Virus genome (UHGV): UHGV-0152507
DNA from: a virus
DNA length: 16,550 nt
Direction: 5' to 3' (one strand)
In this document: piece after piece, positions 4,475 through 9,737 of the stretch
Numbering within the stretch: position 1 is the stretch's first letter
Layout: each line of letters opens with the position of its first letter
The notes under the pieces: generated by a model
What the model was told of the DNA's origin: nothing
Databases searched by the model: none
What the model saw: the letters and a program-made list of their open reading frames with translations, nothing else
Position numbers and translations under genes: made by a program

Positions 4475-5479
4475 ATGATTCGATCTCTCGTTAAATGGCC
4501 CGGTGGTAAAGGCCGCGTTATGCCTGATTTGCTGCCGATTCTGCCGAAAGCCGATTGCCTGGTGGAACCGTTTGTCGGCGGAGCTTCTGTTTTCCTCAAT
4601 ACTGAATATCGCCGTTATATCCTGGGTGATATCAACCCAGATTTAATTAACCTGTATCGCCAGATAACCCGCTGGCCTGATGCGGTGATCGACGCTGCTC
4701 GCCCGCTGTTTAAAGTGTACGGTGATAAAGACGGCTATAAGTGGATCCGCGACGATTTCAACGCCCGCGCCCATGACCTTCTGTCATCGCGCAATGTGTT
4801 TGAGGACGGACCGGACGCGGGCAAGATTCTTCGTGCAGCACAGTTTCTTTACCTGAACCGTCACGGATATAACGGCGTAGTGCGCTACAACCAACAGGGC
4901 GGATATAACGTTCCCTTTGGTAGACACAAAACCCCGCCTTACTTCCCGGAAGAACAGATCCGTTTATTCTCTGAAAAAGCTAACGACACGAAAGCTATTT
5001 TCGTGTGCTGCGATTTCCAGAGCACGTTAAAAATCATGATTGGTAGTGACGCGGTTATCTACTGCGATCCGCCATACCTGCCAGCAAGCGACACCGCTAA
5101 TTTCACCCAATACCACACCGCCCCGTTTGGCATTAAAGAGCATCGCCAGTTAGCTGCCGCCCTGCTGGATATTAACCGCCTTACTGGTTCGCCGGTGATC
5201 CTGTCCAATAGCGACACCCCATCTACCCGCGAGATTTATCGCGCTTTCAACTTCCAGGAAATCAGCGTTAACCGTTCTGTCAGCGCGAACGCCATTACCA
5301 GAGGGGCCGCCAGTGAAGTGATCGGCGTGCTGCCTGTCTGTGATGGCTGCGGGCGCTATGAAGGTGGTCACTGTGCGAAATGTTGCCCAGGTATCGCCGC
5401 ATGTGAGGAGGGATGGTCGTTTGATTGTCGAGGCAACTGCGATATTTGCGAGCCGTCCGATAACCCGGAAACGTGGTAA
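4475..5479 (+). CDS. dam: DNA adenine methyltransferase (Dam family) with a C-terminal Cys-rich extension
   Basis: AdoMet-binding motif EPFVGGASVF near the N-terminus and catalytic DPPY (CDPPYLP), with Dam-like sequence throughout. SD GGAGAAAG. The last ~50 codons (5330..5479) encode ten cysteines that are not part of a typical Dam. Confidence 0.9.
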   Translation: MIRSLVKWPGGKGRVMPDLLPILPKADCLVEPFVGGASVFLNTEYRRYILGDINPDLINLYRQITRWPDAVIDAARPLFKVYGDKDGYKWIRDDFNARAHDLLSSRNVFEDGPDAGKILRAAQFLYLNRHGYNGVVRYNQQGGYNVPFGRHKTPPYFPEEQIRLFSEKANDTKAIFVCCDFQSTLKIMIGSDAVIYCDPPYLPASDTANFTQYHTAPFGIKEHRQLAAALLDINRLTGSPVILSNSDTPSTREIYRAFNFQEISVNRSVSANAITRGAASEVIGVLPVCDGCGRYEGGHCAKCCPGIAACEEGWSFDCRGNCDICEPSDNPETW

Positions 5480-5495: not shown

Positions 5496-6125
5496 ATGAG
5501 AAAAACACACGAATTAAAGATTTGGCCGGAGTTTTTTCAACCTGTTATGGACCGCGTGAAATACGCTGAATTGCGCCTAAATGATCGCGACTATAGCGCG
5601 GGCGACGTTTTGTTTTTGCGGGAGTTTTTACCCGCTAGCGGCAAATATTCGGGCAGCTATAACGTAGTAATAATATCTCATGTCGCTGATGTATCGGCGT
5701 TTATGCCGGGGTACGTCCTGCTTAGTTTCACTTCTTTCGTTACGCGCGGCGCTAACTGGCCTTTCCATAAGCCAACTACAGTGGAGGCTGCTGTAACTGC
5801 GGAAGATACTGGTTTTCTTTCGGCGCTTGTCGCCTGCGAGCCTCCCTGTAGCGTGATTCACCAAATGGCACGCCGACTGCTTGATGAACATCCATCGCTT
5901 CCAGTGTCCGAAAAATCTGATCTGTTGCCATGCCCCTTTTGCGGTGAAGCGGCTTTCTTTGACTCTATTTTTGATTACCAGTCAGAAACGCGTGTTTATG
6001 CCCCGTCTTGTACGGAGTGCTCATGCGAATTGATGGACGGCCCGATCATTAACAAATATGGGCGCGGTTGGTATGCCTCAAAGCAGGATGCCGCCGAAGC
6101 CTGGAATAAAAGGCGCTCGCAATGA
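5496..6125 (+). CDS. Two-domain protein: N-terminal DUF3850-like (ASCH/PUA-like) domain fused to a C-terminal Lar-family restriction-alleviation-like domain
   Basis: N-terminus MRKTHELKIWPEFFQPVMDRVKYAELRLNDRDYSAGDVLFLREF matches the DUF3850 hallmark as recalled. C-terminus LPCPFCGEAAFFD...SCTECSC...AAEAWNKRR matches the Lar-family pattern (CPFCG ... C-x2-C ... AWNRR). SD GAGGGA before ATG 5496. Stop overlaps the next start (ATGA at 6122..6125). Confidence 0.8.
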   Translation: MRKTHELKIWPEFFQPVMDRVKYAELRLNDRDYSAGDVLFLREFLPASGKYSGSYNVVIISHVADVSAFMPGYVLLSFTSFVTRGANWPFHKPTTVEAAVTAEDTGFLSALVACEPPCSVIHQMARRLLDEHPSLPVSEKSDLLPCPFCGEAAFFDSIFDYQSETRVYAPSCTECSCELMDGPIINKYGRGWYASKQDAAEAWNKRRSQ

Positions 6126-7126
6126 CTGCCTATTACAACGAAATCGATCCATATGCAGCACAGTGGCTGCGCAACCTCATTGATGCCGGGCATATTGCGC
6201 CAGGCATTGTTGATACCCGTTCAATTGAGGATGTAACCCCCAATGACCTTAAAGGCTTTACTCAATGTCACTTCTTTGCCGGGATCGGTGTGTGGTCATA
6301 TGCCCTGCGTCTTGTGGGCTGGCCGGACGACAAACCGATCTGGACTGGATCCTGCCCATGCCAGCCTTTCAGCCCGGCAGGCAAAGCAACTGGGTTTGAT
6401 GACGAGCGGCACTTATGGCCCGCCTTTCATTGGCTCATTGCTCAGTGCCGCCCTGTCGTTGTCGCTGGCGAGCAATCTGGAAGCGCTAACGCGAACGTCT
6501 GGCTCGACCTTGTACAAACTGACATGGAAAGCCTGGGCTATGCCTTCGGGGCGGTCGCGTTTCCGTCTGCGAGCGTCGGTGCGCCACACATCTGGGACAG
6601 AGCTTACTGGGTGGCCGACACCAACGGCGAGCGCATGGAAACACCCTGGAAACCAGGGGAGGCAGGGAGGCTTGAATTTGCAAACGGCCACAGCATTAGC
6701 TGGGTGGCCGACACCAACAACGCAGAGCAACAACCAAATCTCAGGAGTTGGAGCTGCTGCAGATCACCCGAAGCGCGGGACAACTTTGGGCGGGGCTGCT
6801 CAGCTGTCGGGGTGGCCGACACCAGCTTCAAGGGACGGCAAGGGGGGGTATCAGGGCGGGAGGATACGCAACGGGAAGCTGTCGACGGACACGCTGGATG
6901 TGACGGCGCAAATTGCGGGACCGGTCCGGTTAACGGTTTCTGGCGATCTGCTGACTGGCTGTATTGCCGGGATGGAAACTGGAGGCCAGTTAAACCCGGA
7001 CTTAAGCCGCTGGTTGATGGGGTTACCGGACGAGTGGGAAAAATCCGCGCCTACGGAAACGCTATCAACGTTGAAGCTGCAACAGCGTTCATAAAGGCTT
7101 ATATGATGGGGGCGTCAAATGTCTGA
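6122..7126 (+). CDS. Dcm-like DNA cytosine-5 methyltransferase, apparently frame-disrupted or frame-variable
   Basis: Annotated frame has FFAGIGVW (motif I-like), catalytic PCQ at 6356..6364, RPVVVAGEQ (motif VI-like), LESLGY, GAPHIWDRAYWVA (motif VIII-like) and YGNAINVEAATAFI (motif X, 7052..7093). The motif IX-like LNPDLSRWLMGLPDEW is only in the overlapping +1 frame (6990..7037). Confidence 0.7.
   Translation: MTAYYNEIDPYAAQWLRNLIDAGHIAPGIVDTRSIEDVTPNDLKGFTQCHFFAGIGVWSYALRLVGWPDDKPIWTGSCPCQPFSPAGKATGFDDERHLWPAFHWLIAQCRPVVVAGEQSGSANANVWLDLVQTDMESLGYAFGAVAFPSASVGAPHIWDRAYWVADTNGERMETPWKPGEAGRLEFANGHSISWVADTNNAEQQPNLRSWSCCRSPEARDNFGRGCSAVGVADTSFKGRQGGVSGREDTQREAVDGHAGCDGANCGTGPVNGFWRSADWLYCRDGNWRPVKPGLKPLVDGVTGRVGKIRAYGNAINVEAATAFIKAYMMGASNV
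6607..6826. repeat. Three copies of a 19-nt element inside the methyltransferase gene
   Basis: CTGGGTGGCCGACACCAAC at 6607..6625 and 6700..6718; CGGGGTGGCCGACACCAGC at 6808..6826. They encode GWPTP in the +1 frame and (W/G)VADT in the annotated frame. Confidence 0.7.
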
Positions 7127-9737
7127 CGCCGCCTTTGCATGGCCCTGGAACGCGCCGCGCCCAGCTGTTGGCCTGTACACCTACGAACCGAAAAAAATCG
7201 CCCCGCTTGCCGGGGCGGTGGCGCATCATCCTGCCGTAAAAAAACACATCGATCACATATTCAAACGCGCCGGTTACAACCCTGACGACGTTCGCGACCG
7301 TGACGCGCTGATCCAGACGCTGGACAGGTACGAACCGTGCGGCCTGCCACTGGCCGCCCAACAAAATATCATCCGGCAGGAAAGTGCAGCCGCGAAAGCT
7401 GCGGCGGCCGCCTGGGCCAATACGCCGGAAGGTGTCGAAGCGCGTTTGTTGTCTGAGCCGTTCTTCATCCGCGAAGTCTGGCGCAAAAAAATTGAATGGT
7501 TACGGGCCAACCGTGAAACCAGACACACCAATGATTTTCTTATGGGGACCGTGAAAAAATCATTGCTGCGTCTTGATGTTGTGCGCACAAGGCAAGGTGT
7601 TTCGCCTGATATCACCGGCGAACTGGCCGCGTACTGGTTCGGGCGCTGGCAACGGCTGGCTGATTTCACAAAGCGGGAAGCCCTAAGCGCCGCTAATGAG
7701 ATCGCCAGCCGCATGGCTGAAATGCTGGGGACGGAATGCGAAGCCTTGGGACGAAATGTTTCAGACATGAACGTCGAAGAACTGGACTGGCTTTATTGCC
7801 ACCTGGGCCGTGAAATGCTGGCGCTTCGCATTGTGCCGCCTGCATGGTATGCGCCGTGGGAACGCGAGCGCATATGCACGGCCATTTTGCGTATGGCTTC
7901 GCCTGACTGGTGGGGGCGCAAAATCTGGCGCTTGCGTTGTGACTGGCGCGAAAACCAGCTGCGTGCTGTTGGCGCGGTAAATAAAAAAGCGCATCCGTAT
8001 ATCAGTGCATCAAGCCTGATGGAATGGCAGGAACAGCGACGTAAAAACCGTAATTTCTTCAAAAGTCATGAACTGGTAGACGAAGACGGCAACGTTTCGT
8101 CGCTTGAGGACATGATTAACAAATCCACGTCTAACCCTGCAATTCGTCGTCATGAGCTTATGGCCCGTATGGCTGGCGTGGAGCTTGTCGCCCAGAGTCG
8201 TGGCGATGTTGGCATCTTCCTGACCATCACTTGCCCGTCGAAATATCACGGCAATATTGCGTCCGGCCACCATAACGCAAAATGGAACTACGACACGGTT
8301 GCACAGGCGCAACGCTATTTATGCCGCGTATGGAACCGGGCAACCGCCAAACTGAAACGCGAAGATTTGCGCCCTTACGGCTTCCGCGTCGCCGAGCCGC
8401 ATCACGACGGAACGCCACACTGGCACGCCCTGCTATTTATGCCGCAGGCAGAAGTTAAAGCCACGGTAGCGATTTTGCGTGATTACTTTGTCAAAGAGGA
8501 CCGCGCCGAACTGGGGCGTAATACCGGTGCTCGCTTCAAGTCCAAAAAAATGGACCCACGGAAAGGGTCAGCAACGGCGTATATCGCGAAATACATTTCG
8601 AAGAATATCGACGGCCATGCGCTGGCCGGTGAACTGGACGACGAAAGCGGCAAGCCGCTGAATGAAACAGCCAAATATGCAATGGCCTGGGCATCACTTC
8701 ACCGCATCCGTCAGTTTCAGCCCATCGGACAGCCGCCCATATCGGTTTACCGCGAGCTGCGCAAACTGAGCAATCAGATCACGACGCGCCAGAAAATTGA
8801 CAATACCTTCAAGCGCGGTGCGCCGTTGCTTGTGGATCCTGCTATGGATGCGGTTTGCGCCGCTGCGGATGTCGGGTGCTTTGCTACCTACATCATCCGC
8901 CAGGGTGGTGTTTTGATCCCGCGAGAAAACTATGTCGTCCGTCTGGCCTATCAGCCAGCTGATGAAATGAATGCTTATTGTGAGATCCCCGAAAAGGTAT
9001 TCGGGGTCTGGTCGCCACGTCTGGGGGATGCCTCCCGCATTTGCACCCGTCTGGTTAAGTGGAAAATCCGCGCCAAATCCAAAGCCACCACCGGGGCCAA
9101 AAACGGCCCCGGTTTGGGGGTTGACCTTTTGCCGTCGCCAACCGGCGACGCTTGGAGTTCTGTCAATAACTCTACGGAAGACGAAAAAATCACCGATTTT
9201 TCGCCTGATGTGGAAGGGGTGACAGGAGGAGCAGAAGGGGAAATCGGCGATGTTGAAAACATGGACCAACCGACACGGCGAAAATTGATGCGGCGACTAC
9301 GTGAAACACCATTCAAAAGGCAGCAAAACGGATCACCTTATGAGCCAGGCAGCGAATTAGATGTCGCCTGGCGTTCTGCCGTGGAAAAAACCGAGGCCAG
9401 ATCGGCGGCAGAAAAGGCCAAACGGGCGGCGCTTGCCCCTGCTGTTGCCAGCCTGCTGGCAGATGCGGCGTTGTATTCGGTTGAGATTTCAGAGATTCAG
9501 GCCGTTTCGCTGTTAATGGGGAGTTGTCTGGAGATTGGCGGCAAAGTTTATCGGGCCAGTGCTGACGGCCAGTTGATAACGCGTCAATTACCCGACGAGT
9601 CACGGACGGTGAATAAATTATGGGAACGTCTGCGGGATAACCACGGCATAGATGCCACGCGCCTGCGGTTCGACCCTGCGGGCGAATACGCAAAGATGTT
9701 AACGAAAGCAATTAATTGCGCTGACAAAAAGGGGTGA
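7119..9737 (+). CDS. A: Rolling-circle replication initiator endonuclease, P2 gene A-like
   Basis: 872 aa. HUH-type motif GTPHWHALLF and paired-tyrosine motif YIAKYISKN (compare phiX174 gpA YVAKYVNK). N-terminal AWPWNAPRPAVG resembles P2 A. Position after the early accessory genes is as in P2. Confidence 0.9.
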   Translation: MSDAAFAWPWNAPRPAVGLYTYEPKKIAPLAGAVAHHPAVKKHIDHIFKRAGYNPDDVRDRDALIQTLDRYEPCGLPLAAQQNIIRQESAAAKAAAAAWANTPEGVEARLLSEPFFIREVWRKKIEWLRANRETRHTNDFLMGTVKKSLLRLDVVRTRQGVSPDITGELAAYWFGRWQRLADFTKREALSAANEIASRMAEMLGTECEALGRNVSDMNVEELDWLYCHLGREMLALRIVPPAWYAPWERERICTAILRMASPDWWGRKIWRLRCDWRENQLRAVGAVNKKAHPYISASSLMEWQEQRRKNRNFFKSHELVDEDGNVSSLEDMINKSTSNPAIRRHELMARMAGVELVAQSRGDVGIFLTITCPSKYHGNIASGHHNAKWNYDTVAQAQRYLCRVWNRATAKLKREDLRPYGFRVAEPHHDGTPHWHALLFMPQAEVKATVAILRDYFVKEDRAELGRNTGARFKSKKMDPRKGSATAYIAKYISKNIDGHALAGELDDESGKPLNETAKYAMAWASLHRIRQFQPIGQPPISVYRELRKLSNQITTRQKIDNTFKRGAPLLVDPAMDAVCAAADVGCFATYIIRQGGVLIPRENYVVRLAYQPADEMNAYCEIPEKVFGVWSPRLGDASRICTRLVKWKIRAKSKATTGAKNGPGLGVDLLPSPTGDAWSSVNNSTEDEKITDFSPDVEGVTGGAEGEIGDVENMDQPTRRKLMRRLRETPFKRQQNGSPYEPGSELDVAWRSAVEKTEARSAAEKAKRAALAPAVASLLADAALYSVEISEIQAVSLLMGSCLEIGGKVYRASADGQLITRQLPDESRTVNKLWERLRDNHGIDATRLRFDPAGEYAKMLTKAINCADKKG

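Follow-up and report, generated by a model that had tools for sequence, protein, structure and literature searches.

How is a gene to be read when the motifs of one enzyme are divided between two overlapping reading frames? This question is raised by the open reading frame (ORF) at positions 6122–7126 of the virus genome UHGV-0152507, a stretch of 16,550 nucleotides (nt) that is referred to here as the window. A preliminary description had taken this ORF for a Dcm-like cytosine methyltransferase gene whose reading would have to enter the +1 frame at a run of seven G (G7) and leave it again at a run of five A (A5). A comparison of homologous loci leads to a different answer. Both frames are held open and are under sequence constraint, and the locus most likely encodes two proteins on the same strand which form a two-chain methylase of the M.EcoHK31I kind, a reading that we consider to have a probability of about 0.6. 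The two genes, termed alpha and beta, are the following:

6122–7126, + strand: alpha gene (frame 0), 334 amino acids, C5-cytosine methyltransferase catalytic chain, as identified from the ORF, Pfam and PHROG
6243–7094, + strand: beta gene (+1 frame), nested wholly within alpha, an ORF of 283 amino acids in a frame that is open from 6237

That the +1 frame is open from 6243 to 7094 inside the annotated ORF had been noticed before and agrees with the ORF list. The overlap of alpha and beta amounts to 852 nt in the window, so that beta covers about 85% of alpha, and exceeds 1,400 nt in some relatives.

Two open frames across the family

The homologue set consists of 163 loci, 83 viral and 80 from bacterial genomes. 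The viral set was drawn from five annotated loci (Salmonella SI7, SEN5, Klebsiella phage 2, EBPR podovirus 2 and the window) and 80 IMG/VR loci at 50–67% identity, while the bacterial-genome loci were retrieved with a profile of the +1-frame protein, beta. All 83 viral homologues have a single long open stretch in the +1 frame (a mean of 302 of 337 codons), compared with an average of 16.5 stops in the +2 frame. Neither frame is interrupted across the overlap in 83/83 viral and 80/80 bacterial loci, down to approximately 40% identity. The bacterial loci span the Enterobacterales, Pseudomonas, Burkholderiales, Rhodobacterales, Desulfovibrionales and others; in every one of them frame 0 carries the PCQ motif and stays open, and beta is found nested only. 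The two-frame layout is also present in more distant phages of Escherichia, Salmonella, Rhodobacter and Vibrio, among them Golestan (Kagunavirus), epsilon15 (Salmonella), RcPutin (Rhodobacter) and Vaitephage (Vibrio). The preliminary description had asked for homologues to be aligned in both frames; frame 0 is open throughout, and the +1 frame is open as well with its block resembling motif IX conserved.

A search for single-frame relatives among 270 beta-like database proteins yielded just four sporadic hybrids. These proteins (P0142, P0152, P0247 and P0266) combine parts of both frames, but their junctions are all different and one of them switches before PCQ. Their appearance is that of sporadic indels or assembly errors and not of a conserved alternative form. 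In another relative, L101 (1230–3593), the alpha frame runs about 200 codons beyond the end of beta before reaching YGNAL, on a stretch where other genes have been called; this extension therefore represents a further insertion between the CRDGxWRPVE block and motif X.

Selection on each frame

The chance that a frame remains open was estimated by synonymous resampling with the codon usage of each individual sequence, which is a conservative test. For frame 0 in the centre of the gene, the median probability of being open, P(open), is 0.055, and 68/68 sequences are open. For the +1 frame in the N-terminal half, from FFAGIG to motif VIII, the median P(open) is 0.14 and 58/58 are open. Openness of the two frames by chance is rejected by these tests. 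The first 49 codons, most of which precede the nested ORF, contain 2.6 +1-frame stops on average by comparison.

In some relatives, endonuclease VII (Zn-ribbon) or HNH domains are inserted in frame with +1, as recognised by PHROG matches with E=7e-27, 4e-26 and 2e-14; Pfam searches with these nuclease inserts gave no significant match. Alpha is open through the inserts, which are 129–208 codons long and read as junk in its frame (resampling P=0.0005, <0.0005 and 0.028), and likewise through arrays of 8–10 of the cassettes that beta carries, a distance of about 350 codons. This implies that frame 0 is translated end to end and that the +1 frame is a genuine protein frame. The earlier proposal that frame 0 goes unread in the centre thus does not hold, as frame 0 is open there in every homologue, even through the +1 nuclease inserts. 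The relatives in which beta has a nuclease domain are L085 (3001–4449), L086 (3001–4644) and L087 (3001–4338); seen from the alpha frame, the insert either follows motif VI and precedes the next helix, or it separates the motif-IX-like region from motif X.

The pattern of substitutions along the gene changes as follows:

6122–6358: ordinary frame-0 pattern; codon-position diversity 0.13/0.10/0.51, synonymous differences 0.44–0.62
6362–6600: third-position diversity in frame 0 drops, synonymous differences 0.15–0.38; the +1 translation is conserved equally with frame 0
6602–6928: pairwise identity in frame 0 is 0.04–0.24; +1 is better conserved, with diversity maximal at +1 codon position 3 (0.62)
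6932–7048: high conservation in both frames, with all codon positions constrained (0.23/0.15/0.23)
7052–end: return to the frame-0 pattern
About 6362–7050, + strand: dual-coding core as a whole, with +1 constraint at the protein level; frame-0 synonymous differences fall from 0.44–0.62 to 0.15–0.38 and the frame-0 codon-position pattern is lost

The preliminary description was right in regarding +1 as a selected frame at the GWPTP repeats, where this frame is better conserved and shows +1 codon periodicity, and at the motif-IX-like block. It had placed the change of frame after motif VIII, but the +1 constraint starts at about 6362 and thus upstream of this motif. Even between the window and its 99%-identical twin, three of the four substitutions fall on +1 third positions. 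Judged by these sequence patterns, dual coding under selection is well supported.

Alpha, the catalytic chain

Alpha matches the Pfam family PF00145 (DNA_methylase) with 40.3 bits against a cut-off of 22, with residues 73–175 only and in frame 0 only, and PHROG 363 at 1e-87. A profile of the alpha family aligns with M.HhaI residues 72–174, comprising motifs IV–VIII, with the PCQ motifs aligned (E=1.7e-16). In the AlphaFold2 (AF2) model, residues 1–170 are confident, with predicted local distance difference test (pLDDT) values of 80–95, and the top Foldseek matches are M.HhaI, M.HaeIII, DNMT1 and DNMT2 (probability 1.0). Residues 172–279 have a pLDDT of about 30 and look disordered, and a confident C-terminal helix follows at residues 310–332. 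The GNA of motif X is conserved in frame 0. The assignment of the catalytic motifs and of GNA to frame 0, as given in the preliminary description, is borne out. Motif IX was not detected by Pfam in alpha, nor was the C-terminal third of PF00145 matched by frame 0, the +1 frame or spliced chimeras. Three features of the chain are referred to below:

6272–6289, + strand: FFAGIG, residues 51–56, about 25 residues ahead of PCQ (6350–6373)
6593–6595, + strand: TGG (Trp) in alpha motif VIII, giving HIWDR in the window versus HIRDR in the family, at the position of M.HhaI R163 (the first conserved Arg)
7031–7102, + strand: C-terminal helix with YGNAI (motif X), conservation 0.80 in frame 0 versus 0.41 in +1

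The short distance between FFAGIG and PCQ had been pointed out before and agrees with the coordinates. The N-terminus of alpha begins with a motif-II-like YYNEID (YYNEIDPYAAQWLRNL, within 6131–6289), and the FxGxG-like FFAGIG comes only afterwards. FFAGIG aligns weakly with motif I of M.HhaI (6 bits), and alpha residues 4–96 align with model positions 25–86 of TIGR00675. This suggests that the order of the S-adenosylmethionine-binding motifs in the alpha sequence is unusual or permuted.

At the motif VIII codon, the 99%-identical copy L092 has CGG and thus HIRDR, and the family HIRDR aligns with QKRER of M.HhaI. The T/C difference at the 6593 codon is synonymous in the +1 frame. The Trp in the window may be a polymorphism, may mark a damaged or impaired catalytic chain, or may be a base error in a contig of 3.4x coverage.

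Beta, the nested chain

The +1 alignment is rich in invariant residues and motifs. Its consensus reads ...GSTLYKLTWK..LRASxRRTS..GWPTP(cassettes)..GPARLTASGEMLTGS.AGMESGGQLNPAHSRWLMGLPxEW, and three parts can be distinguished:

6444–6593, + strand: helix and β-hairpin module (SAALSLSLASNLEALTRTSG / GSTLYKLTWK...RFRLRAS), overlapping alpha motifs VI–VIII, defined by AF2 and by invariant residues
6609–6917, + strand: three WPTP cassettes, with units beginning at 6609, 6702 and 6810; frame 0 is an unconserved spacer here
6918–7037, + strand: conserved block at the C-terminus, GPVRLTVSGDLLTG...GGQLNPDLSRWLMGLPDEW, which is motif-IX-like; the alpha block NGFWRSADWLYCRDGNWRPVKPGLKPLVDG (6932–7021) is encoded by these bases as well

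The helix-hairpin module contains residues that are invariant in +1 (G, S, W, K and R) and is predicted better by AF2 than any other part of beta (pLDDT 81–91), while the cassettes are of low confidence and the C-terminal block is of moderate confidence, with SRWLMGL predicted to be helical. AF2 gives a helix followed by a β-hairpin for both products of the same bases (6438–6600): in alpha the helix spans residues 122–137 and the strands 141–149 and 158–166, in beta the helix spans 66–86 and the strands 91–99 and 105–113.

Each cassette unit begins with an exact direct repeat of the core GGGTGGCCGACACCA, at 6609–6623, 6702–6716 and 6810–6824, whose translation is GWPTP in +1 and (W/G)VADT in frame 0. 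In the third copy a G replaces a T, and the earlier observation that this substitution keeps GWPTP and changes the frame-0 W to G can be read directly from the sequence. Throughout the cassette region conservation is higher in +1 than in frame 0, as in one segment with 0.53 versus 0.22. Cassette types recur across proteins at varying positions, with at most one of each type per protein and one to eight cassettes in total; the beta of the window is composed of three common types.

In the C-terminal block both frames are conserved (0.68–0.86 in frame 0 and 0.67–0.84 in +1), and QLNPxxSRWLMGLPxxW is nearly invariant in +1. This block includes the motif-IX-like LNPDLSRWLMGLPDEW of the +1 frame at 6990–7037, which, like the three repeats and the G7 and A5 runs, is present where the preliminary description had placed it.

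Probable translation of beta

The nested gene has a candidate start of its own:

6227–6245, + strand: candidate beta translation start, with GAGGA at 6227–6231, an ATG-TAA start-stop at 6231–6236 and ATG at 6243–6245

All homologues have a +1 ATG at window codon 36, 40, 30 or 28, with GGAG or GAGGA upstream at a spacing typical of initiation. The codons of frame 0 are biased at these positions. Asp36 is encoded by GAT, which gives the +1 ATG, in 63/63 cases compared with 32% at other positions of these genes; for Arg32, the codon is AGG or CGG in 52/73 compared with 22% elsewhere, and in the same 52 Ser33 is AGY, which together yield GGAG. This biased codon choice in frame 0 implies that a start signal for beta is kept. 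In L085, a stop in the +1 frame is followed by a new beginning of beta. Beta is thus probably made by internal initiation, as far as its sequence signals can tell. The configuration with an ATG-TAA start-stop, which in the window ends 6 nt ahead of the beta ATG, is common to about 18 homologues; in most others beta starts at the first ATG, which is not followed by a stop.

A probable two-chain methylase and the evidence against it

M.EcoHK31I is a C5 methyltransferase whose beta chain is encoded entirely inside the alpha gene in a different frame (Lee, Kam & Shaw 1995, as related in PMC2836561). Its alpha chain is reported to contain motifs I–VIII, motif X and the target-recognition domain (TRD), its beta chain contains motif IX, internal Met codons start beta, and both chains must associate for activity (PMC2836561). 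By analogy, frame 0 of the phage gene would be translated into an alpha chain with the PCQ loop, motifs VI and VIII and the C-terminal GNA helix, in which the middle third would be merely a read-through spacer. The +1 frame would be translated into beta from its own ribosome-binding site and ATG, both embedded in alpha codons 32–41, and beta would consist of the helix-hairpin module, a variable set of WPTP cassettes and the conserved motif-IX-like end (QLNPxxSRWLMGLPxxW). Alpha and beta would then assemble into the active enzyme, with beta supplying target-recognition elements and motif IX. For this assembly and the role of beta in it, which lean on the analogy, we see the chances as about even. 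It is conceivable, though we hold this only tentatively, that the family is a widespread phage and prophage methyltransferase heterodimer in which the WPTP cassettes are swappable target-recognition modules of a multispecific enzyme and the alpha frame is maintained as a read-through spacer, even across cassettes and nuclease domains acquired in the other frame.

Several points weigh against the two-chain methylase. The AF2 model of beta, made from an alignment of 110 sequences, is mostly of low confidence (mean pLDDT 63), and a Foldseek search with it against the PDB found no match at E<=0.001. A beta profile built from 53 sequences finds nothing in PDB sequences or Pfam, and neither a single beta sequence nor a 10-cassette relative gave a match in searches of Pfam, NCBIfam and PDB sequences. 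Because profile matches are absent, the likeness of beta to motif IX and to a TRD is a resemblance at the level of motifs. As compared by description, the nested layout and probably the split of motifs are shared with M.EcoHK31I, but in M.EcoHK31I the TRD is reported to reside in alpha, whereas here the middle of alpha is an unconserved spacer predicted to be disordered and the conserved variable cassettes are in beta. At the proposed start of beta in the window, GAGGA and the ATG at 6243 are a long distance apart (11 nt), with the ATG-TAA start-stop in between. Finally, we infer the translation of both products from sequence and the alpha-beta complex by analogy.

Alternative explanations

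Beta could be a real nested gene with a function independent of methylation, for example as a DNA-binding accessory, in anti-defence or linked to a mobile element, with the nesting serving compaction or expression coupling. The endonuclease VII and HNH domains of some beta variants are consistent with this, as is the failure of profile and fold searches to link beta with methyltransferases. We nevertheless regard it as unlikely, if by no means far-fetched: the 80/80 loci retrieved by the beta profile have beta solely inside alpha genes, the end of beta resembles the motif IX that alpha lacks by Pfam, alpha has no conserved target-recognition region of its own, and the precedent of M.EcoHK31I indicates a shared function. 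A different way of making beta would be a fusion, in which translation starts in frame 0 and shifts to +1 upstream of about 6362, so that alpha is accompanied by a hybrid of the alpha N-terminus and beta. The +1 frame is open but unconstrained at 6243–6360, and the frame-0/+1 hybrids P0247 and P0266 are found, if rarely, in databases; moreover, a Shine-Dalgarno-like element can stimulate frameshifting, as in prfB. Against this stand the maintained +1 ATG (GAT in 63/63) with its initiation-type spacing from GGAG, the new start of beta after the +1 stop in L085, the differing hybrid junctions, one of which loses PCQ, as expected of sporadic indels, and the fact that no conserved slippery site was noticed. 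These signals in the sequence favour internal initiation over a frameshift fusion of frame 0 to +1, which appears improbable.

The two homopolymer runs on which the preliminary description had relied are these:

6842–6848, + strand: G7 run, codons for K-G-G in the beta motif GKGGYQGGR; homologues mostly have AAGGGCGGT here
7039–7043, + strand: A5 run, GAAAAA in the window and L009 only; others have GACGAC, GCCAGC and similar

A single polypeptide read from frame 0 to +1 and back to frame 0, by programmed or error-corrected shifts at these runs, would account for the presence of motifs I–VIII and X in frame 0 and of the motif-IX-like block in +1. However, G7 lies 3' of all GWPTP units, which is incompatible with entry into +1 at this point, and G7 and the A-run each occur in only two of 73 distinct homologues, while the longest G run is 4–5 in 54/73. 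The open state of frame 0 is maintained both in the centre and across the +1-coded inserts, +1 is already constrained before motif VIII, and +1 remains open for about 18 codons beyond the proposed exit. The canonical junction of motifs IX and X that such a protein was expected to have could not be recovered: spliced chimeras of four homologues gain no Pfam DNA_methylase score and no C-terminal match, with 34.5 bits compared with 40.3 for the window. Genes with programmed frameshifts (dnaX, prfB and the phage G/GT type) have a conserved slippery site at the junction, and their zero frame ends soon after it. The locus does not follow this pattern because the bases at the proposed exit vary and frame 0 is open to its end in all homologues. 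We therefore consider the single polypeptide very improbable; as the homologues indicate, G7 is an incidental codon choice and A5 is likewise incidental, with no conserved slippery site. An artefact or decay, be it a homopolymer error, a pseudogene or slipped-strand phase variation, might be suspected from the metagenome contig with its 3.4x coverage and from the unusual change of R to W in motif VIII. Yet G7, A5 and the intact layout of two open frames all recur unchanged in L092, which was assembled independently from another sample and is 99% identical, so that there is no heterogeneity of tract length between the two, and phase variation is rejected because the tracts are not conserved in the family and their lengths are identical in this close copy. 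A search of Escherichia coli genomes and plasmids for tract-length variation gave no match above 86% identity; the 99% copy came from the protein index. With the two-frame layout in all 163 homologues and no stops in either frame, sequencing error, decay and phase variation are effectively excluded, and such an origin of the locus is hardly credible.

Genomic setting and annotation

The gene resides in a P2-like prophage segment, and the source is a metagenome contig of 3.4x coverage. On the + strand, the order is a Dam-type adenine methylase (4475–5479), a DUF3850/Lar-like restriction-alleviation ORF that ends at 6125, the 6122–7126 ORF, and a GPA-type replication endonuclease (7119–9737). 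The start of alpha overlaps the stop of the upstream gene (ATGA, 6122–6125), and its stop overlaps the start of the replication gene (ATGTCTGA, 7119–7126). The Dam-type methylase, the DUF3850/Lar-like ORF and the cytosine methylase apparently form an anti-restriction cluster preceding the replication gene.

The family is annotated as a single “DNA cytosine methyltransferase” by PGAP and in most GenBank phage records, and gene callers choose either frame. The beta ORF is matched by more than 4,700 database proteins, having been called thousands of times as a hypothetical protein, and it hits PHROG 31772 (7e-42) and PHROG 1008 (5e-33), both of which label the +1 product ‘DNA methyltransferase’. 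In a 2025 record of the Xanthomonas phage PhiXhv-5 (PV764598.1), both ORFs are annotated, each as a methyltransferase (525–1544 and 607–1539), and in the Escherichia phage P AB-2017 (KY295898.1, 22–702) the +1 ORF is annotated as a ‘putative Mte8-like protein’. The literature yielded no account of dual coding in this phage family.

Comparison with known systems

Beta is longer here than in M.EcoHK31I (283 versus 176 amino acids), and the gene is an orphan of phages and prophages, unlike M.EcoHK31I, which belongs to a restriction-modification pair. A split into two polypeptides is also a feature of M.AquI, a C5 methyltransferase whose two chains must associate, but whose ORFs are arranged end to end with a slight overlap and are not nested. 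In the multispecific C5 methyltransferases of Bacillus phages (SPR, phi3T, rho11s and H2), short, distinct modules in tandem, variable in number, separate motif IX from the catalytic motifs. These modules belong to the catalytic chain and are read in its frame, and they have been shown to act in specificity. The variable short modules described here are similar, but are located in the other frame, and a role in specificity would be theirs by analogy.

Second genes on the same strand and in another frame inside a phage gene are exemplified by lambda Rz/Rz1 and by the mycobacteriophage Applejack, in which the HNH protein gp55 is embedded out of frame in the DNA methylase gp54 (PMC12613952). Rz1 has about 60 codons, as opposed to an overlap of 852 nt to more than 1,400 nt in this family. 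Conservation of the nested product extends across Proteobacterial phages, and this product cannot be described simply as a nuclease.

Implications

In thousands of genomes a second conserved protein is overlooked or wrongly labelled. If target recognition is the task of beta, the annotated protein by itself does not allow specificity to be predicted or engineered in these anti-restriction methylases. The locus also provides hundreds of diverged long same-strand overlaps in which domain insertions in one frame are forced open in the other, which is rare material for the study of dual coding. Should the heterodimer with swappable cassettes prove true, the two genes would rank, at 0.85 to >1.4 kb, with the longest same-strand overlapping pairs of bacterial viruses and with the most widely conserved ones, and would represent a natural system for the co-evolution of two proteins on shared bases.

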